From the NCBI GenBank assembly GCA_036401595.1, contig DASWUM010000020.1, positions 4,784 through 68,783 on the forward strand: a DNA stretch of 64,000 bases. The letters run 5' to 3'. Below are positions 2,617-26,004 of the stretch, piece by piece. Under the pieces are notes generated by a model. The model made no database searches. It was not told the DNA's origin and worked only from the letters and a program-made list of their open reading frames with translations. Made by a program: the position numbers and the translations under genes. Positions within the stretch are counted from its first letter, which is position 1, and each line of letters opens with the position of its first letter. The DNA is from Pyrinomonadaceae bacterium. Lineage in GTDB: Bacteria > Acidobacteriota > Blastocatellia > Pyrinomonadales > Pyrinomonadaceae.

Positions 2617-2641
2617 AACCTGAGAAAATACAGTATTCACA

Positions 2642-2775
2642 GAACGTACTGTAGGGGCGGCCCTCCGTGGCCGCCCTCGGTTGAAAATCGGGTTCGCCAA
2701 ACCCCGAGACCGCTGCTTCTTGAATCCCGTAACCAACCAAGGGCGGCCACGGAGGGCCGCCCCTACAGTACGTTC
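2642..2775. repeat. MITE-like element: perfect 35-bp terminal inverted repeat (2642-2676 / 2741-2775) around a 64-nt core; each arm is itself a GC hairpin
   Basis: Arm 1 is aagcgtactgtaggggcggccctccgtggccgccc, wait-free reading: cgtactgtaggggcggccctccgtggccgccc (2645-2676). Arm 2 is gggcggccacggagggccgcccctacagtacg (2741-2772), its exact reverse complement, and the match extends 3 nt further on each side. Inside each arm GGGCGGCC-ctccgt-GGCCGCCC folds on itself. A solo copy lies at 59961-59993. Confidence 0.9.
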
Positions 2776-2796
2776 CATCGCGCCTGAGAAATTTCT

Positions 2797-2809
2797 TGTA
2801 ACTTTTGCC
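2797..2809 (+). promoter_or_regulatory. candidate ECF-type -35 element shared by both sigma-factor genes (TGTAACTTTTGCC)
   Basis: tgtaacttttgcc lies 35 nt upstream of the ATG at 2844. The paralogous sigma gene has tgaaacttttcgcc at 20304-20317. AAC-containing -35 boxes are typical of autoregulated ECF promoters. I could not identify a convincing -10 element. Confidence 0.3.
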
Positions 2810-2843
2810 GAACTCACGTGTTTTAGGAGACGTAGCGCAGCTT

Positions 2844-3386
2844 ATGGCGAGCGAAGACGCAGAGTTCACCATGCTGTTTCAGGATTTCTACCCTAGCCTA
2901 TGCCGCTTTCTGGAGTGTTTATTGGGAGGCCGCGCGCCGCTGGCGCAGGATTTGGCACAGGAGAGTTTCCTGCAACTGCATCGCACGGCATGGGGAACTA
3001 TGCCGGTCGGTGAGGCGCGCTTCTGGCTCTATCGCGTCGCGCGCAACATGGCGATCAACGAGTTTCGCAAATCGCACACGCGCTACCGGCTGTTTGATCG
3101 AGTGGTCGAAGTCATGAGCCCACGAGCACGCAACCCGGAACAGGAATACGAAACACAGGAGCGGAAAACGCTGGTGCTGGAAATGTTACAGACTTTGCCT
3201 GAAGACCAACGCACCGCGCTGCTGCTGAGAGAGCAGGAACAGTTGAGCTATCGCGAGATTGGACAAGTACTGAACGTCTCCGAAAGCAAAGTGAAGGTCG
3301 ACATTTTTCGCGCGCGAGCATCGCTGCGAGAACGTTGGAACAAGGTGTCAGGGCTTTCAAGATACGCAGGAGTTGGAAACTCGTAA
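2844..3386 (+). CDS. ECF (extracytoplasmic function) sigma-70 family RNA polymerase sigma factor, module 1
   Basis: Region 2 (FQDFYPSLCRFLECLL...AQDLAQESFLQLHR) and region 4 HTH (LPEDQRTALLLREQEQLSYREIGQVLNVSESKVKVDIFRARASLRE). I prefer ATG 2844 over the track's TTG at 2805. Confidence 0.9.
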   Translation: MASEDAEFTMLFQDFYPSLCRFLECLLGGRAPLAQDLAQESFLQLHRTAWGTMPVGEARFWLYRVARNMAINEFRKSHTRYRLFDRVVEVMSPRARNPEQEYETQERKTLVLEMLQTLPEDQRTALLLREQEQLSYREIGQVLNVSESKVKVDIFRARASLRERWNKVSGLSRYAGVGNS

Positions 3387-3388
3387 AT

Positions 3389-4342
3389 ATGAACTGCAGC
3401 TTTACCGAAAAAATCTCGTCACTGATCGATGGTGAGTTAACAGCGGCTGAGGCACGCGAAGTCGAACGCCACCTGATTGGCTGTAATGACTGCCAGCAAC
3501 TGCGCGCTGACTTTCTCAGTCTTCGCACACAGATCGCCGGCTACGAAACGTCGTTGCAGCCCGCAGTTCAGAAACGTGCGTTGAAGAAGATCCTCGGCAC
3601 CGAACGCCCTGTTCCCGCGCGCCGGTTGGGTTGGAGTTTTGGTCCATCGGCAATCGCTTTCGCAACGCTCGTGATCGCGGCTGCAGTCATCGGTTTGCTC
3701 TTCTATCAGAGCTCAAAGAAGAGCGAAGGAGAATCACAACGGGTAGCACAGCAGACACAAAGTCCTTCTCCCGTGCCATCCGGTTCAGGCGAGCAAAGCA
3801 GGCAACAACCGCAAGCCACTCCCGAACCCGGTCGCGAACAACCACAACCGTCGCCGAATAAAGGTAACGACGAAACGCCGCGACGTCAGCCATCGAAGAA
3901 GATCGTCCGCGAACCGAAACCAGGCGAACAGTTTGCTGTGGTTCCCGCTCCGGTTCAGCCCGCCGAAACGCAGACGATTCGCTCCGCCGACGCGCAGACG
4001 TTGACTGCCATGCACTTCGAAAAATCGGAAACGCTGTTGCTCGCGTTCCGCAATGTGCGTCTTAACGAGCCGGGAGCAGCGAAGGAAGTGGGTTACGAAC
4101 GAAAGCGCGCCCAACAGCTCGTTCTGCAAAACATGATGCTGCGTCGCGAGGCTGATGCCGGCGGCGACGTGCAGATTTCATCGCTGCTCGAAAGTCTTGA
4201 GCCGATACTGATCGATATCGCAAATCTTCCCGACCGCCCGGACGAAAACGCAGTGCGCGTGATTCGCCAGCGTGTCGAACGCAAAAACATCGTCCCGCTC
4301 TTGCGGGTTAACTCCACCGCGCTGGCCCGCGCGTTGGACTAA
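3389..4342 (+). CDS. anti-sigma factor, zf-HC2 type, single-pass membrane protein with Pro/Gln-rich linker and conserved C-terminal domain, module 1
   Basis: MNCSFTEKISSLIDGELTAAEAREVERHLIGCNDCQQL carries the H-x3-C-x2-C zinc motif. TM segment is AIAFATLVIAAAVIGLLFY. The start lies 2 nt after the sigma stop. The C-terminus LLESLEPILIDIANLPDRPDENAVRVIRQRVERKNIV is conserved in the paralogue at 20929-21831. Confidence 0.85.
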   Translation: MNCSFTEKISSLIDGELTAAEAREVERHLIGCNDCQQLRADFLSLRTQIAGYETSLQPAVQKRALKKILGTERPVPARRLGWSFGPSAIAFATLVIAAAVIGLLFYQSSKKSEGESQRVAQQTQSPSPVPSGSGEQSRQQPQATPEPGREQPQPSPNKGNDETPRRQPSKKIVREPKPGEQFAVVPAPVQPAETQTIRSADAQTLTAMHFEKSETLLLAFRNVRLNEPGAAKEVGYERKRAQQLVLQNMMLRREADAGGDVQISSLLESLEPILIDIANLPDRPDENAVRVIRQRVERKNIVPLLRVNSTALARALD

Positions 4343-4360
4343 ACGGTTCTTTTAACTCAG

Positions 4361-4466
4361 CGGTTTCACCTCAGAGACACAGGGAACAGAGATGCTATCT
4401 GCGTTTTTGATCACCGCTCGATCTCTGCGCTCGCTCTCAGGTTCTCTGTGTCTGTGCGGTGAACCG
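4361..4466. repeat. about 105-bp imperfect palindromic intergenic repeat (CACAGAG/ATCTGCG heptamer type) inside the module-1 operon
   Basis: The left arm cggtttcacctcagagacacagggaacagag pairs with the right arm ctcaggttctctgtgtctgtgcggtgaaccg. It sits between the anti-sigma stop (4342) and the HEAT gene start (4512). The paralogous junction (21831/21843) has no such insert. Confidence 0.85.
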
Positions 4467-4511
4467 AGTAATGGTTAGAAATATTTATTTGATTAAGGAC
4501 AACAAATCATC

Positions 4512-6020
4512 ATGAAGCAACTGGTTCGTTTTCGCCCCCAAGTCAGAATCGGAGTAGTGCTGCTGGCCATCGCGAGTGCCATCACGTTCTCCGCGATTTA
4601 TGCGCAGCGCAGTTACGGTTTCGACCAGGATCTCGGTAAGCTCAACCGCTTCGTCCAGAACAAAGGAAACACCGCCTCGATGCAGATCTTCCGCGAAGGC
4701 CGCGATCTCATCGAAGCGCAGAACTGGCAGCGAGCGGCTGAAAAATTCAACGACTTCATCAAGGGTTACCCAAAAGATAAAGATCTCGACGCCGCACTTT
4801 ATTGGTATGGCTACGCGTTGCAAAAACAGGATCGAAAAGAGGATGCACGCAAACCACTCGTCGTGCTGATCAACCGATTTCCAAGCTCGAGTTGGCGCGA
4901 GGAAGCAAAGGCCCTGCTCGTCGTGCTCGGCTACAAGGCCGACGTGGACCAGGCGCTCACTAATGAAAATTGCGAGATCAAGATGCTCGCCTTGCAGAGT
5001 CTCTTCCAGGCCGATCAAGAAAGGGCCATCACCATCGCCACCGAAGCCATCAAAGCAAATCCGCAACAATGTCCGGGTTTCCCGGCAGCGGCAGTATCAA
5101 TGCTCGGATCTCATGCCGGCTCGAGAGCCATTCCACTTCTCGTCGATATTGCGCGGACCAACCCCGATCAAAAACTTCGGCTCACTGCCATCAAGCGTTT
5201 AGGCGAACAGCGCTCGGATCAGGTAACCGACGCGCTCATCCAAATCTTCGACGCCGATCGGACCAGAGAAATCCGAGCGCAGATATTGCGCGCGTTGGTT
5301 GAAAGCCGCTCGCCTCGCGGTAGCGCTAAAGTGCTCGAAATCGCTCGCGCCAGTGATGACGTCGCCCTCCGTGTATATGCCATCCGTTTCATCGGCGAGC
5401 TCGAAGACTCCGCATCGCTTGACGAGTTGATTCGTATCTACGATGCCGACAAAACCAGAGAAATTCGGGCGCAGATACTGCGCGCACTCGCCGAGCGCGA
5501 GGACCAGCGCGCACGTACCAAGCTCTTCGAAATCGCACGGCAGGGCGACTCACCGGAAATGCGGCTCGAAGCAATTCGCCGTCTCGGCGATCATCAACGC
5601 ATTTCGCTCGACGATCTGATGCAGCTCTATACGAGCGAATCAAATCTGCAAATCAAACAGGGACTGTTACGCGCGTTTGCAGACAACAACGATCCACGCG
5701 CACAGGCGAAATTGTTTGAGATCGCTCGCGGCAACGACCCGGTTGAGCTGCGCGGTTATGCAATTCGACAGCTCGGCGAGAAGGATGACGAGCCGACTGT
5801 CAATCAGCTCGTGTCGATGTACGATTCAGAGCAAAACCCACAAATGAAAATGTCGTTGATGCGTGCATTTGGCGATTCGAAGCAGAAAGTTGCTGTTCGC
5901 AAATTGATGTTGATCGCCCGCAACGATCCGTCAGTGGAAATGCGCAAGATAGCGGTCAGGTATCTGGGCGAGAGCAAAGATCCTGAAGCCCTGAAATTTC
6001 TTGAAGACCTTCTGAAATAA
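4512..6020 (+). CDS. exported HEAT-repeat protein with N-terminal YbgF/BamD-like TPR segment, module 1
   Basis: Signal/anchor VRIGVVLLAIASAITFSAIYAQ. TPR-like segment DAALYWYGYALQKQDRKEDARKPLVVLINRFPSSSWREEA. Then about 6 copies of a 60-64-aa unit (L..IYDADKTREIRAQILRAL.....R...KLFEIAR..D.E.R..AIR.LG). Confidence 0.8.
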   Translation: MKQLVRFRPQVRIGVVLLAIASAITFSAIYAQRSYGFDQDLGKLNRFVQNKGNTASMQIFREGRDLIEAQNWQRAAEKFNDFIKGYPKDKDLDAALYWYGYALQKQDRKEDARKPLVVLINRFPSSSWREEAKALLVVLGYKADVDQALTNENCEIKMLALQSLFQADQERAITIATEAIKANPQQCPGFPAAAVSMLGSHAGSRAIPLLVDIARTNPDQKLRLTAIKRLGEQRSDQVTDALIQIFDADRTREIRAQILRALVESRSPRGSAKVLEIARASDDVALRVYAIRFIGELEDSASLDELIRIYDADKTREIRAQILRALAEREDQRARTKLFEIARQGDSPEMRLEAIRRLGDHQRISLDDLMQLYTSESNLQIKQGLLRAFADNNDPRAQAKLFEIARGNDPVELRGYAIRQLGEKDDEPTVNQLVSMYDSEQNPQMKMSLMRAFGDSKQKVAVRKLMLIARNDPSVEMRKIAVRYLGESKDPEALKFLEDLLK

Positions 6021-6034
6021 GGCCGATCAATCCG

Positions 6035-6073
6035 TCCACAGATTACACAGATTTCGTCTGCGTAATCTGTGGA
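6035..6073. repeat. hairpin repeat (CACAGAT type) between the two HEAT genes of module 1
   Basis: tccacagattacacag-atttcgt-ctgcgtaatctgtgga forms a 16-bp stem with one mismatch and a 7-nt loop. There is no T-run after it. Confidence 0.85.
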
Positions 6074-6091
6074 TTCACTCGGAGGAATTCC

Positions 6092-7678
6092 ATGCGTTAT
6101 TCAATGCTTCTCTTCCTGGCGATTATCGGCATTGCTTGTGCCGGTGGAAATCACAGCGCCCCTGTTACGACAGTCGCGGCCGCGGCTGCCGACGATCTGA
6201 AAACGCAGTCGCCCGACACCACGATACAAGGTTTTACTGCGGTGGAAGGCGCCGATCTCATGGCTCGTCTCGAGGCCGCACAATCGCGTGCACGCTCGCG
6301 TCAAACGCCTTACTGGTCGGCCTACACTTTTGACGTGCGACCAGGCATCGCTGTCGATCCTGCTATCCGTGAGTTTCATGGATCGATGAACACGATGGGC
6401 GACACGGTCGTGTTTGTCGGCACAAATTCAGCCGGCGTGACAGTGGAAACACGAAGTCTCGCGATCTTTCTGCTGCGTGAACCGGCGAGTAACCAAATCA
6501 CGCGCCTGGAGGTTTACAACCTCGAACGCAAACGTGAGTACAGCGGCTATCCCGTCTACTGGCTCGGCCGTGCGAACAACGAGGAAAGTCTCAACTACAT
6601 GCGCGCGCTTGCGGCAGCCTCGCCGCTCGATATGTTGAGCGAACGTGCGGTTCTCGGCATCGCGTTGCATGACGACGCTCGAGTCGCCGGTATGCTCAAG
6701 GGATTCGTCACCAGTTCGCCAAATCAGCGCATTCGTTCGAGCTCGGTTTACTGGCTAGGCCAGGTCGGCGGCGAAACGACATTCCTCGCGGGGCTCGTTC
6801 GCAGCGACACCGAAGACAAGAAGATCAGGCGCTCGGCAGCCCACGCGATTGGACAAAGTCGCGAGCGTGGAACAATACCGACCCTCCAGGGACTCTACGA
6901 GAGCGTGAAGGATGCCGAGATTCGTAGAAGTGTGATCTCAGCGGCCGGTAACAGTCTCGATGAACAGCCGGCCTGGACATTTCTGCTCGGTATCTCGAAG
7001 AACGATGCTGATTGGGAATCGCGCCGGACCGCTGTGCGTCAACTCGGAGATTTCAAGCGCGACGACACGGCCGACGAGTTGATGAAGATTTACAACAACG
7101 ACGCCAACATCGAGGTGAAGCGCGCCGCGTTGCGTTCGCTTGCCGAAACTAAGAATCCGCGTGGTCAGGCGCGTCTGCTCGAGATCGCGCGCACCGAAAC
7201 TAATCCTGAATTACGAAAGTCAGCGATTCGTGTGATGAGCGATCGCGGCGAAGCGGCAGTTGAGGATCTGCTGAAGTTGTTTGATTCGGAACAGTCGGCG
7301 GATGTCAGACGCTCAATTCTGCAAACGCTTTCGGACATCAAGAGCACGCGCGTCGAAGACAAGTTGTTTGAAGTTGCGAAGGGTAACGACACGCTCGACG
7401 TGCGGCGGCAGGCGATTCGACTACTCGGCGAACGCGCGAGCAAACGCAGCTTCGAGTTTCTGAGTGAGACTGCGCAGAGTAATGATGGAAATGCGGAAGT
7501 GCAGGTGCAGGCCGTGCGTGCGATCAGTGAGCGACGCGCCGAGGAATCCGTGCCGCTGCTGATCAAGATTGCGCGGACGCATCCGAATCAGCTCGTGCGC
7601 AAACAGGCAATTCGTTCGCTCGGCGAGTCGGGCGATCCGCGCGCGGTCGATTTCTTCAGGGAAGTGTTAACGAAATAA
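6092..7678 (+). CDS. exported protein with uncharacterised N-terminal domain plus C-terminal HEAT repeats, module 1
   Basis: Signal peptide MRYSMLLFLAIIGIACAGG. N-domain motifs YTFDVRPGIAVD and EVYNLERKREYSGYPVYWLGRANNEESLNYM are shared with 23460-24608. The HEAT units have the same type as in 4512-6020. Confidence 0.8.
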   Translation: MRYSMLLFLAIIGIACAGGNHSAPVTTVAAAAADDLKTQSPDTTIQGFTAVEGADLMARLEAAQSRARSRQTPYWSAYTFDVRPGIAVDPAIREFHGSMNTMGDTVVFVGTNSAGVTVETRSLAIFLLREPASNQITRLEVYNLERKREYSGYPVYWLGRANNEESLNYMRALAAASPLDMLSERAVLGIALHDDARVAGMLKGFVTSSPNQRIRSSSVYWLGQVGGETTFLAGLVRSDTEDKKIRRSAAHAIGQSRERGTIPTLQGLYESVKDAEIRRSVISAAGNSLDEQPAWTFLLGISKNDADWESRRTAVRQLGDFKRDDTADELMKIYNNDANIEVKRAALRSLAETKNPRGQARLLEIARTETNPELRKSAIRVMSDRGEAAVEDLLKLFDSEQSADVRRSILQTLSDIKSTRVEDKLFEVAKGNDTLDVRRQAIRLLGERASKRSFEFLSETAQSNDGNAEVQVQAVRAISERRAEESVPLLIKIARTHPNQLVRKQAIRSLGESGDPRAVDFFREVLTK

Positions 7679-7734
7679 GCCGCAGATGAACGCAGATCTT
7701 CGCAGATCTGCGTTCATCCGTTAAATCCGCGGCT
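7679..7734. repeat. palindromic intergenic repeat (CGCAGAT type) between convergent genes; likely bidirectional terminator
   Basis: gatgaacgcagatc (7685-7698), ttcgca, gatctgcgttcatc (7705-7718) form a perfect 14-bp stem. Outer arms gccgc / gcggc extend it. The element overlaps the TAG stop of the minus-strand gene at 7733-7735. Confidence 0.85.
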
Positions 7735-8692
7735 AAATACCTGCCAGGAGTTTCTTCCAACGCACCCATGCTTCGTCGCGTGCCTTCTTGTTTCCCTTCC
7801 ACGCCGTTAAGTTTTTCTGATAATCCTCGGCGGCCTTATCGTCGGCGGCTTTGTCACCCTTGGGTTGCGGAGCTACCGGCTCAGGCGCCTCACCGGCGCG
7901 CATGAAACCATGTCCCGCACCTTCGTACGTAACTGGATCAAAAGTCTTCTTCAACTCAGTCATTGCTTCCGACGTCTTCGGCAAAGTGGCGTTGATGCGA
8001 GCATCGTTGCCGGCGTAGAAGCCGTAAACCGGAGCAGTGATCTTTGCGAGGGCTGCTTTGTCCGGAGTGCCATCGGCGGCGGCCGGCGCTGAACCATAAA
8101 ACACAAACGCTGCTTTGATGTTTGGGTTGTTGGTGGCAAAACGGAACGATTGACTACCGCCCCAACAGTATCCTGTCACCACCACCTTGCCGTTCGACGC
8201 CGGAACTTTCGAGATGTAATCCGCAACGGCATTCAGGTCGGCAGTAATTTGATCCGGCGGAAGATCGCGGATCGCCTGGCCCACTCCATTACGATCGAGC
8301 GAACTCGTGCCACCACCGTTTGGTCCCATGCCCGAAAGCAGATCCGGTGCGATGGCAACGTAACCAGCTTCGGCTAGCTGGTCCGTCAAACTCTGCACCC
8401 AGTCGCTCATGCCGAAGATTTCATGAATGACGATCACTGCCGTCGCTTTGCTCTTATTCTCGGGATAGACCACGAAACTATTCACTTCGCGTGTGCCGTT
8501 CTTAATCTTCACCCACTCCTGGTGACGCGGCGACTTAGCCAAGCGCTGCTTGGCCCATTCCTGCGACTCATTCGGATCGGCCGCCGCCGCAGCCGGCGCG
8601 TTGTCGTTGTGGTGGTTCGCGTTCATGTCCTGTGCACAGGACGTTACCGAGCACAGGAGTACCAGCATAAACAAAGTGATCGTTGATCTCAT
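7733..8692 (-). CDS. dienelactone hydrolase family protein, exported
   Basis: Signal peptide MRSTITLFMLVLLCSVTSCAQ. DLH motifs VIVIHEIFGMSDWVQSLTDQLAEAGYVAIAPDLL, nucleophile elbow GYCWGG and EGAGHGF. Confidence 0.8.
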   Translation of the reverse strand: MRSTITLFMLVLLCSVTSCAQDMNANHHNDNAPAAAAADPNESQEWAKQRLAKSPRHQEWVKIKNGTREVNSFVVYPENKSKATAVIVIHEIFGMSDWVQSLTDQLAEAGYVAIAPDLLSGMGPNGGGTSSLDRNGVGQAIRDLPPDQITADLNAVADYISKVPASNGKVVVTGYCWGGSQSFRFATNNPNIKAAFVFYGSAPAAADGTPDKAALAKITAPVYGFYAGNDARINATLPKTSEAMTELKKTFDPVTYEGAGHGFMRAGEAPEPVAPQPKGDKAADDKAAEDYQKNLTAWKGNKKARDEAWVRWKKLLAGI

Positions 8693-15670: not shown

Positions 15671-16176
15671 ATTTTCTTGAGCTCACTGATTCTGGCGAGA
15701 TGATAATCGTCGTGTTCCGCCTGGAAAAATAACATATCGACGAGCCGCATCTGTTGATTTAATCGCGGGTGCAGCGCAGAACGGGCAAAAAGATCGGCGT
15801 CAAGACTCTCGAGACGGTCGACGAGCTCGAGCCTGGCGGCGCGGAACGCCGTCAGGATTGACGCAACTGGAACGTCGTTGTGGCTGGCTTCGAACGTCTT
15901 GCGATTCGACATGTCGGCGGCGTGCAGCGTTGTGTTGCCGGCGAGATACTCGTCGACACGCTGCGACACGAGACTTTCGAGATCGAGCAGATGGCCGGCG
16001 TTTTCCTGCATCGACCAGCGGCCGTCAACTTGTGCGATCAGTGTTTCGGGTTTGAGACCGCTGAACAGATCTTCGAGGCGTGCGGGTGTGCCGCGCACGC
16101 GCTCGATCATTTCGGGATAAATACCGGCGGGAAAATCAAACCTAAAGCTACGATCGGTCCATTTAATTCTTTGCAT
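15649..16176 (-). CDS. DinB family protein
   Basis: WSMQENAGHLLDLE and EHDDYHLARISEL supply the His triad of the DinB_2 four-helix bundle. It overlaps the downstream gene by 22 nt. Confidence 0.75.
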   Translation of the reverse strand: MQRIKWTDRSFRFDFPAGIYPEMIERVRGTPARLEDLFSGLKPETLIAQVDGRWSMQENAGHLLDLESLVSQRVDEYLAGNTTLHAADMSNRKTFEASHNDVPVASILTAFRAARLELVDRLESLDADLFARSALHPRLNQQMRLVDMLFFQAEHDDYHLARISELKKICAKFSS

Positions 16177-16178
16177 TG

Positions 16179-16249
16179 AGAGTAGATCCTATCCACAGAT
16201 TTCACAGATTCTATCTTAATCAATCTGTGTAATCTGTGGATTCTACTCT
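16179..16249. repeat. palindromic intergenic repeat (CACAGAT type)
   Basis: The left arm agagtagatcctatccacagatttcacagatt pairs with the right arm caatctgtgtaatctgtggattctactct. It abuts the stop codon at 16249-16251. Confidence 0.85.
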
Positions 16250-16668
16250 TATTGAGCTTCGCTTGGCTGCGTGAGGCTGAACCAGTTGCCGGAATTGTCT
16301 TTGAAAACTGCTTCGATGCCGTATGGTCGCTCGGCGGGTTCGGAGACGAATTGCACGCCTTTGGCTTTCAGCTCCTCGTAGGTGCCGCGACAATCGTCGG
16401 TATTGAAGACGCCTGCGCCCATCACACCTTTCGCCATGATTCCGCGTAGCTGGTTCGACGTCTCTTCGTCCATCAGCATACCGGGCTTTGGTTCGAGGAG
16501 GACGATCTCGAAGTTTGGATCGTCGTTCGTGCACATCGTCAACCAACGAAAGTCCGCGCCCACCATTGCGTCGGTGTGCACGCGGAAACCCAGCTTGTCG
16601 CGATAAAACTCGAGCGCTTCGGCCTGATTGTTAACAAAAATTGTGGCGTGAGACATCCTGCGGATCAT
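16249..16668 (-). CDS. VOC family protein (glyoxalase/bleomycin resistance/dioxygenase fold)
   Basis: MSHATIFVNNQAEALEFYRDKLGFRVHTD is a typical first beta-alpha-beta-beta-beta module. Length is 139 aa. Confidence 0.8.
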   Translation of the reverse strand: MIRRMSHATIFVNNQAEALEFYRDKLGFRVHTDAMVGADFRWLTMCTNDDPNFEIVLLEPKPGMLMDEETSNQLRGIMAKGVMGAGVFNTDDCRGTYEELKAKGVQFVSEPAERPYGIEAVFKDNSGNWFSLTQPSEAQ

Positions 16669-18274: not shown

Positions 18275-20269
18275 ATGACCGGCACAACCGATACACGTCC
18301 TGAAAATATCAAATTCTCGGGCCGCATTCTATTCTTAACTGACGAGACCGCCCTGATACGCCAGCAGCTCGAAGCCACCGGCGACGCCGCGACCGCGCTC
18401 GAAGCCGATCTCGCGGCACGTCTGCTCAACGGCGACCTGCCGTTAATGAGCAATATCTCCACCGACGAAATCACACCCGGATGGGTCTGTTTCTACTATG
18501 ACGAAACACTCGGGCAATACGTTTATGTCGGCATGCGCGAAAGCGCGGTCAAGAAAGACGAAGTGAAAAACGGCGGCTTTGCCGTCGTCGTTTCCGGACT
18601 TTCAAAGGGCTGCGGCTCTTCGCGCGAGACAGCTCCTTACGCCGAGAAGGCAGCCGGCATCCAGCTTGTGATTGCAAAAAGTATCGAGAAGATTTACGGA
18701 CAGAACTCACAAAACATCGGTCTGTTGACGTCAACCGATTTTGGATTGATCGAACGCATCCGACGCGGCGAAGAGATTCCGCTCTCGGAGTTCACCAAAG
18801 GTCTGGATCCGATCTCGCAGGACATCGTCACTCATGGCGGACTGTTCAACTACAACAAGGCGCGGCTGTCAGGGAAAGTTTCTCCGCCGCCGATCGAAAC
18901 CGCGCCGCGTCCGATGACGATCGTCGAAAAGATTATCGCGCGTCATGCGTTTGTGACCGCCGGCAAGATCGGTATTCCCACGGTGAAGCCCGGCGATGCG
19001 TTGTTTGCGCTAGCCGACGTTCGATTCTCACATGAATACGTCACGCCGATGGCTGAGTCGCTGTTCAAACATGCGCTTGGGCCAGACGCACGCGTCTCGT
19101 CGCCCGAGTCGGTGTTTGCCTTCCGCGATCACCTGACTTTTCTCGGGCGTGTGATGTCGCCGAAGCATCGTGAAATGGGTCTGCTGGAGAAGGCCGAAGG
19201 TTTGGCGACCACGCAGCAGAGTTTTACCGAACAACAGAACATCCGTCTCTACGGGGAGAGTCCCGAAGGTGGTTCCGAAGCTATCTGTCACAACGCCGTC
19301 GTTGAGGATCTCGCACTGCCCGGACAGATCGTCATCGGCACTGATTCGCACACGTGCATGGCCGGCGTGCTCGGCTGCTTCGCTTTTGGCGTCGGCTCAA
19401 CCGACATGGCGAACGCGTGGTACACGAAAGACATTCGCATTCGTGTTCCTGAGACGGTGCGTTACGTGCTGAAAGGAAAGAAGCGCGAAGACGTCGCGGC
19501 GAAAGACGTGATGCTCTTCATACTCGCTTCGGAGTACATGAAGTCGAGCAAAGGCATCGGCAAAGTGCTCGAGTTTGCCGGCGAGGACTTGAAGAACTGG
19601 CCCATGGACGAACGAGCGACGCTGACAAATATGGCCGTCGAGGCCGGCGGCACAACCGGCATCATTGAACCCGACGAAGTCACGCTCGATTACGTCGTGC
19701 AAACACGCGGGCTCGACGCCGACGAAGTTCGTAAAGGATTTATCTACAGCGACGAGGATGCCGAGTACGCGGCCGTCTTCGAGATCGATCTGGACGAGAT
19801 TGGTCCGATGGTGGCCACGCCGGGCGATCCGCGAAACGGAATTCCGATTGAGGATCTCGACGAGGTTCGCATTGACGCCGCTTACGGCGGTTCATGTACC
19901 GGCGGCAAGATGGCCGACATGGATATGTATGCCGAGGTGCTGGAAAACGCCCTCGCGAATGGCAAACGAGTGGCCGAAGGTGTGCACCTGTACATTCAGT
20001 TTGGCTCGCAGAAAATCAAGCAATACGCACGGCAGCGAGGCTATATCGACATCTTCGAACGCGCCGGCGCTGAGCTGATCGACCCCTCGTGCGGCGCTTG
20101 TATCAATGCCGGCCCGGGCGCCTCGCCTTCGGCGGAAACCGTCACCGTCAGCGCCCAGAATCGAAATTTTCCAGGCCGCAGTGGCCCCGGCAAGCTCTAC
20201 CTCGCCTCACCCTACGTAGTCGCCGCCTCCGCGATCGCCGGCAAGATCGTCGATCCCAAGGAGATCTAG
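18275..20269 (+). CDS. aconitase-family hydro-lyase with N-terminal swivel (LeuD-like) domain fused to the catalytic (LeuC-like) domains
   Basis: N-terminal LeuD-like motifs: ISTDEITPG and GCGSSRETAPYAEKAAGIQLVIAKS. Catalytic motifs: GTDSHTCMAG, GGSCTGGKMADM, CGACINAGPG and SAQNRNFPGRSG, which supply the three Fe-S cysteines. Confidence 0.8.
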   Translation: MTGTTDTRPENIKFSGRILFLTDETALIRQQLEATGDAATALEADLAARLLNGDLPLMSNISTDEITPGWVCFYYDETLGQYVYVGMRESAVKKDEVKNGGFAVVVSGLSKGCGSSRETAPYAEKAAGIQLVIAKSIEKIYGQNSQNIGLLTSTDFGLIERIRRGEEIPLSEFTKGLDPISQDIVTHGGLFNYNKARLSGKVSPPPIETAPRPMTIVEKIIARHAFVTAGKIGIPTVKPGDALFALADVRFSHEYVTPMAESLFKHALGPDARVSSPESVFAFRDHLTFLGRVMSPKHREMGLLEKAEGLATTQQSFTEQQNIRLYGESPEGGSEAICHNAVVEDLALPGQIVIGTDSHTCMAGVLGCFAFGVGSTDMANAWYTKDIRIRVPETVRYVLKGKKREDVAAKDVMLFILASEYMKSSKGIGKVLEFAGEDLKNWPMDERATLTNMAVEAGGTTGIIEPDEVTLDYVVQTRGLDADEVRKGFIYSDEDAEYAAVFEIDLDEIGPMVATPGDPRNGIPIEDLDEVRIDAAYGGSCTGGKMADMDMYAEVLENALANGKRVAEGVHLYIQFGSQKIKQYARQRGYIDIFERAGAELIDPSCGACINAGPGASPSAETVTVSAQNRNFPGRSGPGKLYLASPYVVAASAIAGKIVDPKEI

Positions 20270-20300
20270 CCACGGATTAAACGGATCCGTGGCTGATTTT
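20268..20300 (+). terminator. likely intrinsic terminator formed by an AGCCAC-capped repeat
   Basis: agccacggat-taaacgg-atccgtggct forms a 10-bp stem, followed by gatttt. It overlaps the TAG stop at 20267-20269. Confidence 0.65.
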
Positions 20301-20303
20301 CAC

Positions 20304-20317
20304 TGAAACTTTTCGCC
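20304..20317 (+). promoter_or_regulatory. candidate ECF-type -35 element (TGAAACTTTTCGCC), paralogue of 2797-2809
   Basis: It shares TG(T/A)AACTTTT(C)GCC with the module-1 upstream region and lies 32 nt upstream of the ATG at 20349. Confidence 0.3.
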
Positions 20318-20348
20318 CTCGCCCTGCACTAACCTACCGAGAGAGACG

Positions 20349-20939
20349 ATGAGTGCATTCGCGGGAACTCTGATGAACAGTTCAGCAGACCTTGTCACTC
20401 GCGTATGCCAGGGTGACGCCGAAGCCTTTCGTCTGATTTTTGAAAGGTATTCGCGGCCCGTCATCAGTTTCATCTATGACATGGTTAACGACCGCGGGCT
20501 GGCCGAAGAGCTGACGCAGGAGACTTTCGTCCGCGCTTTCCGTGCGATTCATACGATGCGCACGGAAACGAAACTCTCCACCTGGCTCTTCGGCATCGCG
20601 CGAAACGTCGCGCGCGAATCGCTTCGGGCACGCGCCCGCGCCAACAGTCACGTCGATCTCGCGGATAAATCGGTTATGGATTTGAGCGACAACAAACCGG
20701 TGCCAGTCGATGGATTGCTGAGCAAGGAGTTGAACGAACTGATCCGGCGCTCCCTCGCCGCACTCGACGAAGACAAGCGGCTGGTATTCACGCTCAAGGT
20801 GCTGCACCAATGCAGTTACGAAGAGATTGCAACGATCACGGGGTTTTCAATGGCAAAGTTGAAGACTGATTTGCATCGCGCTCGCGCCGAGATGAGAAAG
20901 CGAATCAGTCCCTACGCTGGAGTTGGTTATGAAGTGTGA
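20349..20939 (+). CDS. ECF sigma-70 family RNA polymerase sigma factor, module 2
   Basis: Region 2 is FRLIFERYSRPVISFIYDMVNDRGLAEELTQETFVRAF. Region 4 is LDEDKRLVFTLKVLHQCSYEEIATITGFSMAKLKTDLHRARAEMRK. Confidence 0.9.
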   Translation: MSAFAGTLMNSSADLVTRVCQGDAEAFRLIFERYSRPVISFIYDMVNDRGLAEELTQETFVRAFRAIHTMRTETKLSTWLFGIARNVARESLRARARANSHVDLADKSVMDLSDNKPVPVDGLLSKELNELIRRSLAALDEDKRLVFTLKVLHQCSYEEIATITGFSMAKLKTDLHRARAEMRKRISPYAGVGYEV

Positions 20940-21831
20940 AGTTTGTTTAGAGTCTTTGGAAGAATATCTCGACGGCGAACTCGCCGCGGAGACGAGCGAG
21001 CAGATCGATGCACATTTGATTACGTGCAGCGAATGCTCGACGAGTTTTGCAACGCTCAACGCGGAACAGGAGATCTTCGCGCGTTACGATCGTGAGATCG
21101 AAGTATCGCCGTTCATGTGGACCAGGGTCGCGGCCCACACGGTTTCCGAAAGCAATATCGCAAAACGCGGTTGGTTGGCGACTCTTATTAGAAGACCATC
21201 GCTCGCAAGTGCTATCGCACTGTCGCTGATCGTGGCTTTAATCGGAGGCGTTTACTTTTTAACGAAGCATAAATCTCCCGATTCAACCATAGCGACGACT
21301 CCTTCACAGATCCCAAGCCCAAATCCGGTTCGTGAATCCGTCCAATCCGCGGCCCCTAAACGTGAAGTGATCGCATCGCAAAAGAAACAGGCATCCCGAG
21401 TTCAACCGCCGGTCGTCGTTCACGTACCAACTGATCAATCCGATGTGTTGTCATCTGACACTGGCTATCTCGATATCGACGATCAGGACACCGCCAAGCA
21501 CATCGAACAAACTCAGATTCTTTTGCGCTCGATCAAGAACGTCGCCATCGCTGACGGCGACGACGAAATCGACGTCACTTACGACAAAGCACTCTCGCGT
21601 CGCCTGCTGAATGAAAACGTCGTGCTCCGGCGCGACGCCGAGATGAAGGCAAAATTTCCTACTAAAACGTTGCTCGCCGATCTGGAGCCATTCCTGATCG
21701 ACATCGCAAACCTGCCCGACCACGCGAAGGCTGAAGATGTGCGTGTGATCAAGGAGCGGGTGCAAAAAACCGAGATTGTAGCGGCATTAGTCGACTATCA
21801 GGACCGGGGCACAATCATCGTCAAAGAATAG
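20929..21831 (+). CDS. anti-sigma factor, zf-HC2 type, module 2
   Basis: MKCEVCLESLEEYLDGELAAETSEQIDAHLITCSECSTSF carries the H-x3-C-x2-C motif. TM segment is ASAIALSLIVALIGGVYFL. The C-terminus LLADLEPFLIDIANLPDHAKAEDVRVIKERVQKTEIV is paralogous to module 1. ATG 20929 (RBS ggag at 20918-20921) overlaps the sigma gene by 11 nt. The track start at 20923 is TTG. Confidence 0.85.
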   Translation: MKCEVCLESLEEYLDGELAAETSEQIDAHLITCSECSTSFATLNAEQEIFARYDREIEVSPFMWTRVAAHTVSESNIAKRGWLATLIRRPSLASAIALSLIVALIGGVYFLTKHKSPDSTIATTPSQIPSPNPVRESVQSAAPKREVIASQKKQASRVQPPVVVHVPTDQSDVLSSDTGYLDIDDQDTAKHIEQTQILLRSIKNVAIADGDDEIDVTYDKALSRRLLNENVVLRRDAEMKAKFPTKTLLADLEPFLIDIANLPDHAKAEDVRVIKERVQKTEIVAALVDYQDRGTIIVKE

Positions 21832-21842
21832 AGGCTAAATCC

Positions 21843-23426
21843 ATGTTGAAGAACCTTACAGCGAATACGGCAACCGCAATGACGCGCGCCCGGTTTGTAC
21901 TGATCACTCTCTTAATCACCTTGATGGCTGGTGTAGCCAGTGCGCAGGGGCAGCGCGCCGCCTCCCAATCAAGTTCGGCAAGTTCGGCAAGTTCGTCCAA
22001 CCGCAATCAAAGCGACGCCACTACAGTGTTTCGCAGCGCGCGTGACCTTATCACCGACGGTGAGTGGGCCAAGGCTCAGGCGGAGTTTGATAAGTACGTA
22101 AATCAATATCCGAACGAGAAGAACGTCGACGCCGCGCTCTACTGGCTCGCCTACACGCAACAGCGATTGGCTGAGTATGACCGAGCCCGCACGACGCTCG
22201 AGCGCCTGCTGGAAAAGTATCCCAACACCGCGTGGAAAGACGACGCGCGCGTCCTCTTGGCCCAGGTGCCGGGTTATGCAGCAAAAGCAGCAGCCTCCGA
22301 TGAACTGCTTCAGCAATTAAGAGTCGCCACCACCATTACACCGAAATTTGAAAGCGCTTATGTTCTTGCTCCCGGTGCACCGGTAGACGTAACACCTGCC
22401 CAGGCTCAAGCAATTGCAAAGACAGTTTGGTCTGTCGATGAAGCCAGTAACTCGGCCGACGATGACGATCCGTGTGAATTCAAGATCGTCGTGTTGCAAG
22501 CCCTGTTTCAAACCGATGTCCAGCGCGGCATCATGGCCGCGACTGAATGGCTCAAGCCAGGTTCGACGCAAACCGTGCGTTGCAAAGGCGCCGCATTGGC
22601 TCTGCTCGGCCGCAACGGCGGCAAGTCAGTGACGCCAGTATTACTCGGCGTAGCGCGCAGTGAACCGGATCTGAAACTGCGAGCGCGTGCAATCTCCGCA
22701 CTCGGCGCCAGCAACGACGACAGCGTTGTCGATGCACTCCGTGACTTCGCCCTCAATTCACCGGAAAACGATATCGTCGAAGCATCGCTCTACGCCTTGA
22801 GTAGACACACCGGCGAACGTGCGATCGCAGTGCTGAGCGATATCGCAATCAGCGGTAAGACAACTCCGCAACGAAAGCTCGCCATCTCGAGCATTGCGAC
22901 TCGACCTGGCGAACCTGCTGTCGACGCGCTACTGCGGATTTATGACGCAGATCAGACTGTGGAGATTCGCCGCACCGTTATCTCCGGCTTCGGAAATCGC
23001 AAGAGTGAACGAGCAGGCGCCAAACTCTTCGACATCGCGCGCGGCTCAGACACTATCGAACTTCGCAAAGCAGCCATTAGTGCGATTTCGCGACGCGGCG
23101 GAGACAAGGCAATCGAGTTTCTGCTCAGTCTGTACGACACCGAGAAGAACGAGGAGTTGAGAGATCAGATTATTAGTGCGCTGGGTTACGGCAGCAACGT
23201 GTACGTCACCACTCCTGTGGCAGTTGGCTCAGGACAAGGTCTCGGCTACGGCGTGGGCAGCGGCAGTTCAAATAGCAGGATGAATGACCAGCGTGTGATT
23301 CAGAAATTTATCGAGATCGCGCGGGATCAGAAGGCTCCGATGGAACGCCGCAAACGCGCCATCGGCTGGCTGAGCCGCAGTAAAGATCCCTCAGTGCTTA
23401 AGTTTCTTGAGGACTTGTTGAAATAA
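21843..23426 (+). CDS. exported HEAT-repeat protein with N-terminal YbgF/BamD-like TPR segment, module 2
   Basis: DAALYWLAYTQQRLAEYDRARTTLERLLEKYPNTAWKDDA is paralogous to 4512-6020. HEAT units include LRIYDADQTVEIRRTVISGF...KLFDIARGSDTIELRKAAISAI. It has the same C-terminal tail, KDPSVLKFLEDLLK versus KDPEALKFLEDLLK. Confidence 0.8.
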   Translation: MLKNLTANTATAMTRARFVLITLLITLMAGVASAQGQRAASQSSSASSASSSNRNQSDATTVFRSARDLITDGEWAKAQAEFDKYVNQYPNEKNVDAALYWLAYTQQRLAEYDRARTTLERLLEKYPNTAWKDDARVLLAQVPGYAAKAAASDELLQQLRVATTITPKFESAYVLAPGAPVDVTPAQAQAIAKTVWSVDEASNSADDDDPCEFKIVVLQALFQTDVQRGIMAATEWLKPGSTQTVRCKGAALALLGRNGGKSVTPVLLGVARSEPDLKLRARAISALGASNDDSVVDALRDFALNSPENDIVEASLYALSRHTGERAIAVLSDIAISGKTTPQRKLAISSIATRPGEPAVDALLRIYDADQTVEIRRTVISGFGNRKSERAGAKLFDIARGSDTIELRKAAISAISRRGGDKAIEFLLSLYDTEKNEELRDQIISALGYGSNVYVTTPVAVGSGQGLGYGVGSGSSNSRMNDQRVIQKFIEIARDQKAPMERRKRAIGWLSRSKDPSVLKFLEDLLK

Positions 23427-23459
23427 ATGGCAGCCACGAAACGTCTAAGGATCAGGATT

Positions 23460-24608
23460 ATGATTCGAAGAAACATAATCTCAGTAGTAATCGTTCTGGC
23501 TTTAAGCGCCGTTGCATTAGGGCAAACCAGGAACTTTACGCCCGTAGACGGCGCCAATCTCAAGGCCAAAATCGACGGCGCCATCATCGCCGGCAAGGCG
23601 AATACACCAAATGGTCGATTTTGGATCGGTTATCAATTCGAAGTTCGACCCGGTGTCGCGATAGATTTTGAGTTAGTCGACAGTGCCGGCGGTGTTTATA
23701 TGTCGATGGACGGAACCTCCATGATGTTCGATCCGCGTCACGAAACACGAGAACTCGGGCTGTTTCTGCTCTACGACACACAGAACGACTCATTCACGCG
23801 AGCAGAAGTCTACAATCTGCGCCGCAATCGCGAATTCAGCAGCTATCCCGTCTACTGGGCCGGACACATCACGAACGAAGAGAGCTTGAACTATCTGAAG
23901 TCGATCGTGGATTCGCCTGCGCCGGAGATAAACCGGCTCTCCGAACGCGCAACGTTCGCCATTGCCCTGCACGACGATGCGCGCGTCGATCCGATACTCA
24001 TGGAAATGGTCCGCAGACCAGTCGCCGATCCGATGCGCTCGCGAGCCATTTACTGGCTTGGGAACACCGGTGAGAGTGCGGCCAAAAATACTTTCTTCAC
24101 CGAGATCGTTCGTAACAACCAGGAAAGCACTGAGGCTCGTAACTCGGCGATGTCGGGGCTGGCAATGAGCCGCTCGGCCGCCACCCTCCCGCTTCTGCAG
24201 AACCTGTTTGAGACGATGACCACGCGGGAATTGAAGCGCCGCGCCCTCGGCGGCATGGCTCGGAACGACAACAGCGATGCTGCGGCAACGTACCTCATCA
24301 GAGTTGCCGAAACTGAAAAGGATCTCGAGTTGCGCAAGAGCGCCATCTCGAGTCTCGGGCGTATTGCAGGTCAAAAAAGTCTAGGAGCCCTAACTAACAC
24401 TCTCGACAACGATGTCGATCTCGAAATCCAGAAGCAGGCAGTAATTGTCATTGGACGTCGTGCGAAAGATGAAGCAATCCCAATTCTGATTCGCACAGCC
24501 CGGAACCATCCAAAAATGCCCGTCCGAAAACTGGCCATTCAGATGCTCGGACAAACTGGAGATGAACGCGCCGTCGCGTTCTTCAGAGAACTTTTGAGCA
24601 AGGATTAA
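23460..24608 (+). CDS. exported protein with uncharacterised N-terminal domain plus HEAT repeats, module 2
   Basis: YQFEVRPGVAID and EVYNLRRNREFSSYPVYWAGHITNEESLNYL are paralogous to 6092-7678. I prefer the start MIRRNIISVVIVLALSAVALGQ at 23460 (RBS aagga at 23446-23450). ATG 23427 is an alternative. Confidence 0.8.
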   Translation: MIRRNIISVVIVLALSAVALGQTRNFTPVDGANLKAKIDGAIIAGKANTPNGRFWIGYQFEVRPGVAIDFELVDSAGGVYMSMDGTSMMFDPRHETRELGLFLLYDTQNDSFTRAEVYNLRRNREFSSYPVYWAGHITNEESLNYLKSIVDSPAPEINRLSERATFAIALHDDARVDPILMEMVRRPVADPMRSRAIYWLGNTGESAAKNTFFTEIVRNNQESTEARNSAMSGLAMSRSAATLPLLQNLFETMTTRELKRRALGGMARNDNSDAAATYLIRVAETEKDLELRKSAISSLGRIAGQKSLGALTNTLDNDVDLEIQKQAVIVIGRRAKDEAIPILIRTARNHPKMPVRKLAIQMLGQTGDERAVAFFRELLSKD

Positions 24609-24612
24609 AGTA

Positions 24613-24936
24613 ATGAGCAGTTCATTTCACAATATCAACACCTTGAGAGAGGCGGCGATCACACTCCTACGTGAAGTGGAATCGCTTGCCAGTCAGCAGG
24701 AACCGCCAACTTCCCAGCGGCTCGGGCTTCAGGAAGAGGTGCAGCGATATGAAAGCGAACTAATTCGCGATGCACTTCACCGCACGCGCGGCAATCAGCG
24801 ACGTGCGGCTAAGCTTTTGGGCGTGAAGGTTACGACGCTCAATTGCAAGATCAAGCGACTCGGGCTCCAGCAGGTAGCCGCACAGGATCTTCCGGACTTG
24901 AACCAGGATAGCCAGGAGATAGCCTGTCCATCCTGA
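24613..24936 (+). CDS. small Fis-type helix-turn-helix DNA-binding protein (HTH_8 only)
   Basis: YESELIRDALHRTRGNQRRAAKLLGVKVTTLNCKIKRLGL matches the C-terminal DNA-binding domain of NtrC/Fis proteins. No receiver or AAA+ domain is present. It starts 4 nt after the HEAT gene stop. Confidence 0.8.
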   Translation: MSSSFHNINTLREAAITLLREVESLASQQEPPTSQRLGLQEEVQRYESELIRDALHRTRGNQRRAAKLLGVKVTTLNCKIKRLGLQQVAAQDLPDLNQDSQEIACPS

Positions 24937-24940
24937 AAGG

Positions 24941-24959
24941 AATCTGCGTAATCTGTGGA
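24941..24959. repeat. solo arm of the heptamer repeat (ATCTGCG / ATCTGTG)
   Basis: aatctgcgtaatctgtgga sits between convergent genes ending at 24936 (+) and 24970 (-). Confidence 0.65.
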
Positions 24960-24969
24960 GAAGACCTTC

Positions 24970-25926
24970 TCAACGCGTTGAGAGTTCGGCCACGATCTCT
25001 CTCACTGCCGCGCGCGCTTCTTCAACTTCTTCCGGCTTAAATGAAACGGCGCCGACTACGGCGTGACCGCCGCCACCGTACCGTTCGCAGATCTTTGCGA
25101 TGTTGTGCGTGCGTGGGACGGGCGCCCAGGGATTCGAACCCACCGAGATCTTCGTGCGTAGCACCCCGCGTGTAAGCGCGACGGAATAGGTCGCCTCGGG
25201 ATGCAGGTAGTAGGGAATGAACTTGTTGAAGCCTTCGTAACCCTCGTCAATCAGATCAAACTGGACCACGCCGTTTGCGCTCTTCGCTTTCCTGCGCACA
25301 GTTTCGAGCGTCTCGAGATGTTGTTTGAGAATGGGCTGGAAACGGCGCTGCACTTCCGCACTCGTCGCCACTTCTTCGAGCGACTGCACTGTAAGCTGCC
25401 GAATGATTTGTTCGATGAATGAATCGTCGGGATCGGCTTCGATCACCTGCATTAGTTGCAACGCCGGCTCTTTCAACTCGACGCACTGCGCGGGCGACTC
25501 GTAAAGCGCGCCGTCGATGACGTGAGCCCAGTGGACCAAAGACGCGATCGGTTCCGGGTTGAATCCAAATCGCTCGTGAGCGACGTCGGCAATAAACTCC
25601 GTGCACGACTTCCTTTCGGGATCGAGAAACTTCCTGCCTGACTTATCGGCGCGAAAGTGTGCTTCGTCTTCAGGCGTCAAAAACGCCGACTCATGATGAT
25701 CGAACCACCACGTCAGTTTCTCGGAAGCAGCGTATTTGAAATCAACGATGGCATTCTCGTCTGAATCGAACATGGCGAGGTCAAACAAGTTGCCGGGCCG
25801 ATGAAGCAGACCTTTGTATCTGACCTCCGCTTCCGGATGGATGCGTTCTTTGTAAAAACGCGTGAAGGTAGCCGCCGAAGCGACGCCGTCGAAACAGTGA
25901 CCGTGATAAAGGACGCGAAGGTTCAT
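24970..25926 (-). CDS. DHH family phosphoesterase-like protein
   Basis: YHGHCFDGVASAA is motif I-like. WWFDHHES contains the DHH motif. YGGGGHAVVGAVSF contains the DHHA1 GGGH motif. Confidence 0.6.
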   Translation of the reverse strand: MNLRVLYHGHCFDGVASAATFTRFYKERIHPEAEVRYKGLLHRPGNLFDLAMFDSDENAIVDFKYAASEKLTWWFDHHESAFLTPEDEAHFRADKSGRKFLDPERKSCTEFIADVAHERFGFNPEPIASLVHWAHVIDGALYESPAQCVELKEPALQLMQVIEADPDDSFIEQIIRQLTVQSLEEVATSAEVQRRFQPILKQHLETLETVRRKAKSANGVVQFDLIDEGYEGFNKFIPYYLHPEATYSVALTRGVLRTKISVGSNPWAPVPRTHNIAKICERYGGGGHAVVGAVSFKPEEVEEARAAVREIVAELSTR

Positions 25927-25941
25927 TTAAGATCAGTATTT

Positions 25942-26004
25942 GGCCGCAGATTTACGCAGATAAACGCGAATCAGATCCGCGTTCATCAGCGCAAATCCGC
26001 GGCT
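25942..26004. repeat. archetypal heptamer-phased palindromic repeat: three forward units, then three reverse units, 10-nt phase
   Basis: Read in 10-nt blocks: ggCCGCAGATtta CGCAGATaaa CGCGAATcag ATCCGCGttc ATCAGCGcaa ATCCGCGgct. The two arms are complementary at about 23 of 28 positions. Confidence 0.9.

Follow-up and report, generated by a model that had tools for sequence, protein, structure and literature searches.

We analyzed a 64,000-nucleotide stretch of DNA from the metagenome-assembled genome of a soil bacterium of the Pyrinomonadaceae (Acidobacteriota, Blastocatellia; assembly GCA_036401595.1, contig DASWUM010000020.1, positions 4,784 to 68,783 of the forward strand), hereafter referred to as the window. 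Two paralogous copies of a four-gene module, encoding a sigma factor of the extracytoplasmic function (ECF) type, an anti-sigma factor and two HEAT repeat proteins (HEAT-1 and HEAT-2), lie on the + strand at 2844-7678 (module 1) and 20349-24608 (module 2). The maps of open reading frames (ORFs) for 2000-8500 and 19500-26000 give the same gene order in both copies, and Pfam finds the same domains in each: Sigma70_r2 and Sigma70_r4_2 in the sigma factor, zf-HC2 in the anti-sigma factor, TPR_6/YfiO and HEAT_2 in HEAT-1, and HEAT_2 in HEAT-2. An earlier reading of the window (hereafter the original prediction) had proposed that the second copy repeats the order and domain layout of the first, and the ORF maps and the Pfam matches bear this out.

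In module 1, the gene for ECF sigma factor 1 (2844..3386, 180 aa, with sigma-70 regions 2 and 4) starts at 2844 and that for anti-sigma factor 1 (3389..4342, 317 aa) at 3389. The latter protein has a zf-HC2 domain, one transmembrane segment, a Pro/Gln-rich linker and a conserved periplasmic C-domain. HEAT-1 of this module (4512..6020, 502 aa) consists of a signal peptide, a YbgF/BamD-like TPR region and HEAT repeats ending in a KFLEDLLK tail, and HEAT-2 (6092..7678, 528 aa) of a lipobox-like IGIAC signal, an unannotated alpha+beta N-domain and HEAT repeats. Module 2 comprises ECF sigma factor 2 (20349..20939, 196 aa), anti-sigma factor 2 (20929..21831, 300 aa) with the same zf-HC2, transmembrane, linker and periplasmic parts, its helical-bundle C-domain being encoded at 21478-21828, HEAT-1 (21843..23426, 527 aa; signal peptide, TPR region and HEAT repeats) and HEAT-2 (23460..24608; signal peptide, alpha+beta N-domain and HEAT repeats). 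HEAT-2 of module 2 has 382 aa as annotated, though its ORF opens at 23427 and would give 393 aa. A fifth gene, for a 107-aa Fis/NtrC-type HTH_8 protein with a helix-turn-helix (HTH) domain, follows on the same strand at 24613..24936.

In both modules, as in all related loci, the sigma gene is overlapped or directly adjoined by the anti-sigma gene, and this spacing suggests that the two are co-transcribed. Module 2 had been described as tightly packed, with overlaps or gaps of 12 nt or less. The HTH gene does start 4 nt after the HEAT-2 stop codon; the HEAT-2 start at 23460, given by the public annotation and by the orthologs, leaves a gap of 33 nt after HEAT-1.

The four protein pairs are reciprocal best hits in an all-versus-all comparison of every window ORF of at least 90 aa, and the window contains only two copies of the module. 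BLASTP between the modules gives 30% identity for the sigma pair (E 1e-22), 28% for the anti-sigma pair (E 7e-30, with the C-terminal motif within the alignment), 30% for the HEAT-1 pair (E 1e-62, with both the TPR part and the KFLEDLLK tail aligned), and 33% for the HEAT-2 pair (E 6e-65), whose N-domains alone share 42%. Every protein thus pairs with its counterpart, as had been predicted, with E values from 1e-22 to 6e-65, and the anti-sigma C-terminal, KFLEDLLK and HEAT-2 N-domain motifs quoted in that prediction are all found in the proteins. The identity, put there at roughly 30-45%, is lower than estimated, 28-33% overall.

A resemblance of this kind could in principle come from generic HEAT-repeat periodicity, which the original prediction had itself raised against the pairing, or from independent assembly of the two units from unrelated genes. 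HEAT repeats do cross-match between HEAT-1 and HEAT-2 in the all-versus-all search. However, specific alignments are obtained for the sigma factors, for the zinc finger and the C-domain of the anti-sigma factors, for the TPR region and for the N-domain of HEAT-2. The last three of these regions, together with the C-domain just named, show that the similarity is not that of generic periodicity, as neither the C-domain nor the TPR region nor the N-domain of HEAT-2 is part of the HEAT repeats. Each pair is moreover a reciprocal best hit, and the four gene trees described below are congruent. This explanation is already refuted, and we leave it virtually no weight. Within module 1, the HEAT arrays of HEAT-1 (4512-6020) and HEAT-2 (6092-7678) are themselves homologous (30% over 325 aa, E 1e-41), and the corresponding similarity in module 2 is much weaker (E 1e-7); this homology points to an older duplication that would have taken place inside the module.

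The distribution of the module was followed through the HEAT-2 N-domain. Its profile finds 390 proteins at E <= 1e-3 among 1.84 billion cluster representatives. The nearest database proteins are annotated as 'HEAT repeat domain-containing protein [Pyrinomonadaceae bacterium]', every organism-named member of the family belongs to Blastocatellia or Pyrinomonadaceae, and all inspected full-length members start with a signal sequence. A genome scan with one genome per GTDB species, using a query built from a 10-sequence N-domain alignment, gave 362 relatives. The best 80 of these, from 80 different metagenome-assembled genomes, are all module-2 orthologs and constitute the module-2 loci, and 80 module-1 loci were taken from a metagenome scan. 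As far as their contigs permit, the 80 species-level module-2 loci preserve the order sigma, anti-sigma, HEAT-1, HEAT-2, and so do the 80 module-1 loci and five distant modules found via diverse representatives. Conservation across the 80 module-2 genomes is strong, with the sigma factors 69-98% identical and the HEAT-2 proteins 62-91% identical. In relatives of about 90% identity (L086 with L004, and L087 with L008), the two modules share a contig and an orientation, at a distance of 15-17 kb. The window and these two related contigs therefore each represent a genome with at least two module copies.

Neighbor-joining trees of 16 units with 200 bootstraps were built for the four families. The main groupings are the same in the sigma, HEAT-1 and HEAT-2 trees, and the pairwise-distance matrices of the four families correlate with r = 0.76-0.93. 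The grouping of module 2 with P0141 and P0147 has bootstrap values of 78% (sigma), 2% (anti-sigma), 100% (HEAT-1) and 84% (HEAT-2), and that of module 1 with P0128 has values of 44-68%. Modules 1 and 2 are sisters in 0/200 bootstraps in all four families; they therefore represent two old lineages within a module family that has several. The copies did separate long ago, as originally proposed, but they do not form the simple pair of duplicates that an old duplication had implied.

The absence of a sister relationship also bears on how the second copy arrived. Module 2 might have been acquired laterally from another Blastocatellia lineage, in which case its resemblance to module 1 would reflect membership of the family rather than local paralogy. 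Consistent with such an acquisition, each module groups with modules of other lineages, and the HEAT-2 N-domain tree contains many deep lineages. However, the two modules are syntenic in the related genomes, with the spacing and orientation given above, and among named sequences both lineages occur only in Blastocatellia/Pyrinomonadaceae, which an old duplication in the ancestor of the class would explain equally well. We consider lateral acquisition unlikely, while noting that it and duplication in an ancestor appear indistinguishable on these data.

The histories of the four genes are shared rather than unrelated in the tree comparison, the test that the original prediction had named. The conserved gene order, the congruent trees and a set of natural fusions support the view that the four genes form a co-inherited functional unit. 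In the three fusions (P0192, P0211 and P0242), a HEAT-1-type protein with TPR and HEAT parts is joined to a HEAT-2 N-domain, and in locus L092 the P0211 fusion (6498-8528) lies directly behind a sigma gene and a gene for the family anti-sigma factor (E 1e-38). These fusions point to an interaction between HEAT-1 and HEAT-2. Most of the HEAT-2 repeat array is missing in P0211 and P0242. The 393-aa gene that follows the P0211 fusion in L092 was considered as a HEAT-2 candidate and proved unrelated to HEAT-2.

Both sigma factors match PF04542 and PF08281, and score 99.3 and 92.7 bits with TIGR02937 (cut-off 42.9). Judging from the presence of regions 2 and 4 only, a length of about 180-200 aa and an adjacent anti-sigma gene, they are classified as ECF (group 4) sigma-70 factors. 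The solved structure nearest to sigma factor 2 is that of E. coli sigmaE (1or7, E 5e-23). None of the NCBIfam equivalog or subfamily models reaches its cut-off. A HEAT-linked group is not mentioned in the main text of the ECF reclassification (Staron 2009 / Casas-Pastor 2021 scheme), and no account of HEAT proteins linked to an ECF system in Acidobacteriota came up in our literature search.

The closest known arrangements are rpoE-rseA-rseB-rseC of E. coli and algU-mucA-mucB of Pseudomonas, in which an ECF sigma factor, a single-pass anti-sigma factor and one or more periplasmic accessory proteins follow each other in the same order within an autoregulated operon, the autoregulation being a prediction in the case of the modules. 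The modules differ from them in several respects. The anti-sigma factor is of the zf-HC2/ZAS type and matches neither RseA_N nor RseA_C, the accessory proteins are TPR+HEAT and novel-domain+HEAT solenoids instead of the MucB_RseB fold, rseC is absent, and the family is Blastocatellia in every named member. Since no module protein has an RseA or RseB domain, with RseA and MucB_RseB giving no match in the Pfam and NCBIfam scans, the modules do not belong to the rpoE-rseA-rseB family. Nor do they belong to the FecI/FecR/FecA cell-surface signaling systems: FecR is not matched in Pfam or NCBIfam, and no TonB-dependent receptor is adjacent in the window or the related loci.

The anti-sigma factors match zf-HC2 (PF13490) at E 1e-7 and 5.6e-9, and contain the HxxxCxxC motif as HLIGCNDC in copy 1 and HLITCSEC in copy 2. 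By these two features they are assigned to the ZAS (class I) type and are predicted to bind zinc. The N-terminal anti-sigma domain with this motif is shared with RsiW of Bacillus, RsrA and ChrR, and the topology is the RsiW-like single-pass one, with one hydrophobic segment (residues 82-109 in copy 1 and 86-114 in copy 2) followed by a Pro/Gln/Ser-rich linker. What sets the module proteins apart from RsiW, RsrA and ChrR is the periplasmic domain of about 105 aa, a family-specific bundle that is the best conserved region of the anti-sigma factor. No Pfam family falls on this domain in any of the 120 matches listed. Its model is a helical bundle (pLDDT 89.2), and the fold search returned only generic or designed four-helix bundles, at E >= 0.7.

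N-terminal hydrophobic signals are present on both HEAT proteins, and absent from the sigma factor and the HTH protein. An (I/V)GIAC lipobox-like motif is found in 119/120 HEAT-2 orthologs of module 1 and in 2/120 of module 2, so that HEAT-2 is predicted to be lipoprotein-like in module 1 and soluble in module 2. The HEAT-2 N-domain was modeled as an alpha+beta domain running into the first HEAT helices (pLDDT 89.8, pTM 0.85). The first ~170 residues have no Pfam match; at E <= 1, Pfam touches only the helical tail. A pVHL-type fold was considered for this domain and rejected as meaningless, the TM values from Foldseek against the PDB being only 0.12-0.14.

The TPR region of HEAT-1 matches TPR_6, YfiO and tol_pal_ybgF (TIGR02795, E 1.6e-12; TIGR03302, E 1e-8), and thereby recalls CpoB/YbgF and BamD. 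However, the scores stay below the curated cut-offs (48 and 44 bits with TIGR02795 against 90.1, which places the proteins outside CpoB/YbgF, and 34.9 against 81.4 for BamD), a long HEAT array is joined to the TPR region, and the gene is in a sigma operon and not near tol-pal. The HEAT_2/HEAT_PBS repeats are common to PBS-lyase-type proteins such as CpcE/CpcF and NblB, but the module proteins carry signal peptides for export and score far below the equivalog cut-offs, and the host is not a phycobilisome organism. PADLOC gives generic HEAT-ARM and HTH partial matches only, which do not place the module among anti-phage defence systems.

An ECF-type promoter footprint precedes each operon on the + strand, at 2797..2825 (TGTAAC, 17-nt spacer, GTTTTA) in module 1 and at 20304..20332 (TGAAAC, 17-nt spacer, CACTAA) in module 2, each motif being unique in the window. 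The 64 kb contain two occurrences of TGWAACTTTT, one for each module, and both lie 40-45 nt upstream of the start of the sigma gene. In 65/66 module-2 loci, CTGAAAC(C/T)TTT and (T/G)CACTAAC are nearly invariant in a fixed 23-nt register with a varying spacer. A search of 1.24 Mb for TGAAAC-N16-18-CACT[AT]A gave 67 matches, every one of them upstream of a module sigma gene, one per locus. In module 1, 29/29 loci have TGTAACTTTT and GTGTTTTAGGAG unchanged and in a fixed register, and the spacer and the upstream DNA vary. The style is that of sigmaE promoters: the module has GAAACTT, a spacer and TCACTAA, and the sigmaE promoter is GGAACTT-N16-TCAAA. Between the two modules, the predicted promoters share the -35 element TG[A/T]AAC[T/C]TTT and the 17-nt spacer, and differ in the -10 element, CACTAA in module 2 and GTTTTA in module 1, as would be expected if the two channels were insulated from each other. 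No further copy of the module-2 promoter exists within +/-8 kb in the 80 genomes, and the operon would therefore be its own main local target.

Two loci depart from this pattern. In L019, the module-2 motif (3673) lies about 1.2 kb upstream of the sigma gene (4870) instead of about 45 nt, and HEAT-1 is split into several ORFs; this locus may be disrupted or carry an insertion. In L088, a second, relaxed promoter-like site, GAAAC-N18-CACTAA (4209-4236), precedes a 137-aa ORF just upstream of the sigma gene, and this ORF may be an extra member of the regulon.

The protein encoded by the fifth gene of module 2 matches HTH_8 (PF02954, E 3.7e-10) and has neither a receiver nor an AAA+ part. It resembles only the DNA-binding ends of NtrC-type activators and Fis (PDB 1ntc, E 2e-4; Fis, E 3e-3). 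While the HTH_8 signature is shared with Fis and with the C-terminal DNA-binding domain of NtrC, the module protein stands alone as the last gene product of an ECF operon. It is not a member of Fis, judging from NF001659 (28.4 bits against a cut-off of 99, with only the HTH_8 part, residues 46-85, matching), or of the NtrC-type enhancer-binding proteins, of whose models its 107 aa match only the C-terminal DNA-binding region. The gene had been described as an added orphan. Its size, domain content and 4-nt gap agree with that description, but it is not an orphan, as it comes after HEAT-2 in 77/79 module-2 loci with enough downstream sequence, all but L022 and L037. The distant module L088, which is on the module-2 side of the tree and has a sigma factor that is 59% identical and otherwise different neighbors, has the gene behind HEAT-2 too. 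It is absent from the distant modules L089, L090 and L091. The predicted lack of this gene in copy 1 holds for the window and extends to 47/47 module-1 loci with at least 600 nt after HEAT-2. The HTH_8 gene is thus a lineage-specific core gene of the module-2 lineage.

It might be argued that this gene is an independent neighbor with its own promoter and an unrelated function, kept next to HEAT-2 by chance synteny, since the gap between the two is up to ~240 nt in several genomes and the gene lies 1.5 kb further downstream in L081. We regard this as quite improbable. The 77/79 loci in which it follows HEAT-2 span 62-91% HEAT-2 identity, it is retained in L088 despite the different surrounding genes, the gap is only 4 nt in the window, and the gene never follows module 1. 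L090 (4153-6549) is one of the distant modules that lack the HTH gene; the gene behind its HEAT-2, on the same strand, encodes a MacB/FtsX-type ABC permease, which may hint at an envelope-related output.

Both modules are accompanied by repeats and hairpins. A miniature inverted-repeat transposable element (MITE)-like repeat at 2642..2775, with 42-nt arms (98% complementary) and a 50-nt loop, lies upstream of the module-1 promoter, and the GC-rich core of its arms recurs at 59970-59992. As 28 other module-1 loci lack it at the corresponding position, it seems to have been inserted recently, and we take it to be specific to the window and not part of the module. Repeat hairpins had been predicted at two junctions of copy 1. 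Both are real: a long imperfect hairpin of a dispersed repeat family at 4371..4460 between anti-sigma-1 and HEAT-1 (dG -55, z -4.8), and a hairpin of the repetitive extragenic palindrome (REP)-like CCACAGATTACACAGA family at 6034..6073 between HEAT-1 and HEAT-2 (z -5.0), both on the + strand. They belong to dispersed families, however, and REP-like hairpins flank copy 2 as well. The CCACAGATTACACAGA family has 9 matches in the window, where 0.26 would be expected, and each of them is at the end of a gene (6036, 6057, 12902, 16193, 16224, 20270, 24943, 53469 and 55103); two of them, 20270 and 24943, flank module 2. The former is within a REP-like/terminator hairpin (20268..20293, + strand) located after an aconitase-family gene and immediately before the module-2 promoter. 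Rfam has no family for either junction hairpin of copy 1, and its 'mir-549/mir-263' matches at 16176-16252 are spurious and correspond to one of the REP-like hairpins. The 4371-4460 hairpin is nearly invariant in two orthologs, and was considered as an operon-internal regulatory RNA. This was rejected, as the motif of its arms turns up again between unrelated genes of other genomes, a module-2 junction in L006 among these places. A perfect 15-bp hairpin (7685..7718, + strand) after HEAT-2 marks the end of operon 1, and the gene that follows is convergent. Module 2 is bracketed by the aconitase-family gene (18275-20269) upstream and a convergent 318-aa gene (24970-25926) downstream, beyond which is a thioredoxin/DsbD cluster. 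A relative with 83% identity in HEAT-2 retains this arrangement on both sides.

From the gene content, the topology signals and the promoter footprints, we consider it probable that the two modules are self-activating ECF sigma signaling operons, in which a periplasmic complex of HEAT-1, HEAT-2 and the anti-sigma factor gates the inactivation of the anti-sigma factor. Behind this model is the established biology of sigmaE/RseA/RseB and of ZAS anti-sigma factors. The sigmaE-like ECF sigma factor would be held at the inner membrane by the single-pass zinc-finger (ZAS-type) anti-sigma factor, the periplasmic end of which would be the family-specific helical bundle. The exported alpha-solenoids, HEAT-1 with its TPR and HEAT parts and HEAT-2 with its alpha+beta domain and HEAT part, would bind this bundle or would bind a ligand together with it, and their complex may gate anti-sigma inactivation as RseB gates RseA. 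Loss of the solenoid-bound state would lead to inactivation of the anti-sigma factor, upon which the released sigma factor would transcribe and amplify its own operon from the two-block promoter. In module 2, the HTH protein may act as a second-tier or feedback regulator. The different -10 elements, together with the diverged periplasmic parts, suggest two insulated channels for different cues.

Several points weigh against this model. The promoters are footprints rather than mapped transcription start sites. The trees are neighbor-joining trees of 16 units, in which the anti-sigma family is poorly resolved (the supergroup of module 2 has 2%) and two of the sigma sequences from distant modules are truncated. 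The correlated distances mostly reflect shared descent, and the contact of HEAT-1 and HEAT-2 with the anti-sigma factor is, like the other protein-protein contacts, the signal, the regulated proteolysis and the HTH targets, something that we infer. Function cannot be read from the fold, since neither of the novel domains has a solved structural match, and the wide HEAT-2/HTH gaps in some genomes mean that co-transcription is not assured everywhere. The HEAT proteins could also be outputs of the regulon rather than its regulators.

This last point is the main alternative, in which HEAT-1 and HEAT-2 would be an output, scaffolds for envelope maintenance whose synthesis the sigma factor induces under stress, and the anti-sigma factor would sense alone through its own periplasmic bundle. 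The HEAT genes are downstream of the predicted autoregulated promoter in the same operon, that operon would be its own main local target, and the TPR region is similar to YbgF/CpoB and BamD, all of which would suit an output. On the other hand, every locus examined, the distant ones included, has the HEAT genes together with this particular C-domain of the anti-sigma factor, and the TPR matches are below the curated cut-offs. We consider a pure output role somewhat unlikely, and it should be noted that output and sensor roles are not mutually exclusive. Returning to the gating model, we put forward more tentatively that the anti-sigma bundle, the TPR+HEAT protein and the alpha+beta+HEAT protein may make up an undescribed type of ECF periplasmic sensor complex, so far in Blastocatellia only, with two domains lacking a Pfam or solved relative, several insulated channels per genome that would differ in their -10 elements and in having a lipoprotein or a soluble partner, and, in one lineage, a Fis-like second-tier regulator.

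Dry and agricultural soils are rich in Pyrinomonadaceae and other Blastocatellia, which are difficult to culture, and to our knowledge almost nothing is known about how they sense their surroundings. The module is a previously uncharacterised variant of a well-known type of bacterial envelope signaling and not a new principle, and the understanding of ECF signaling in principle is unchanged by it. What it offers is a defined signaling unit, with two predicted promoters differing only in the -10 element, two sigma factors and fusions pointing to an interaction, and in it two domains, well folded in the models, that no database describes. As such, the module would close a gap in how ECF systems are classified and could be a source of orthogonal sigma/promoter pairs.

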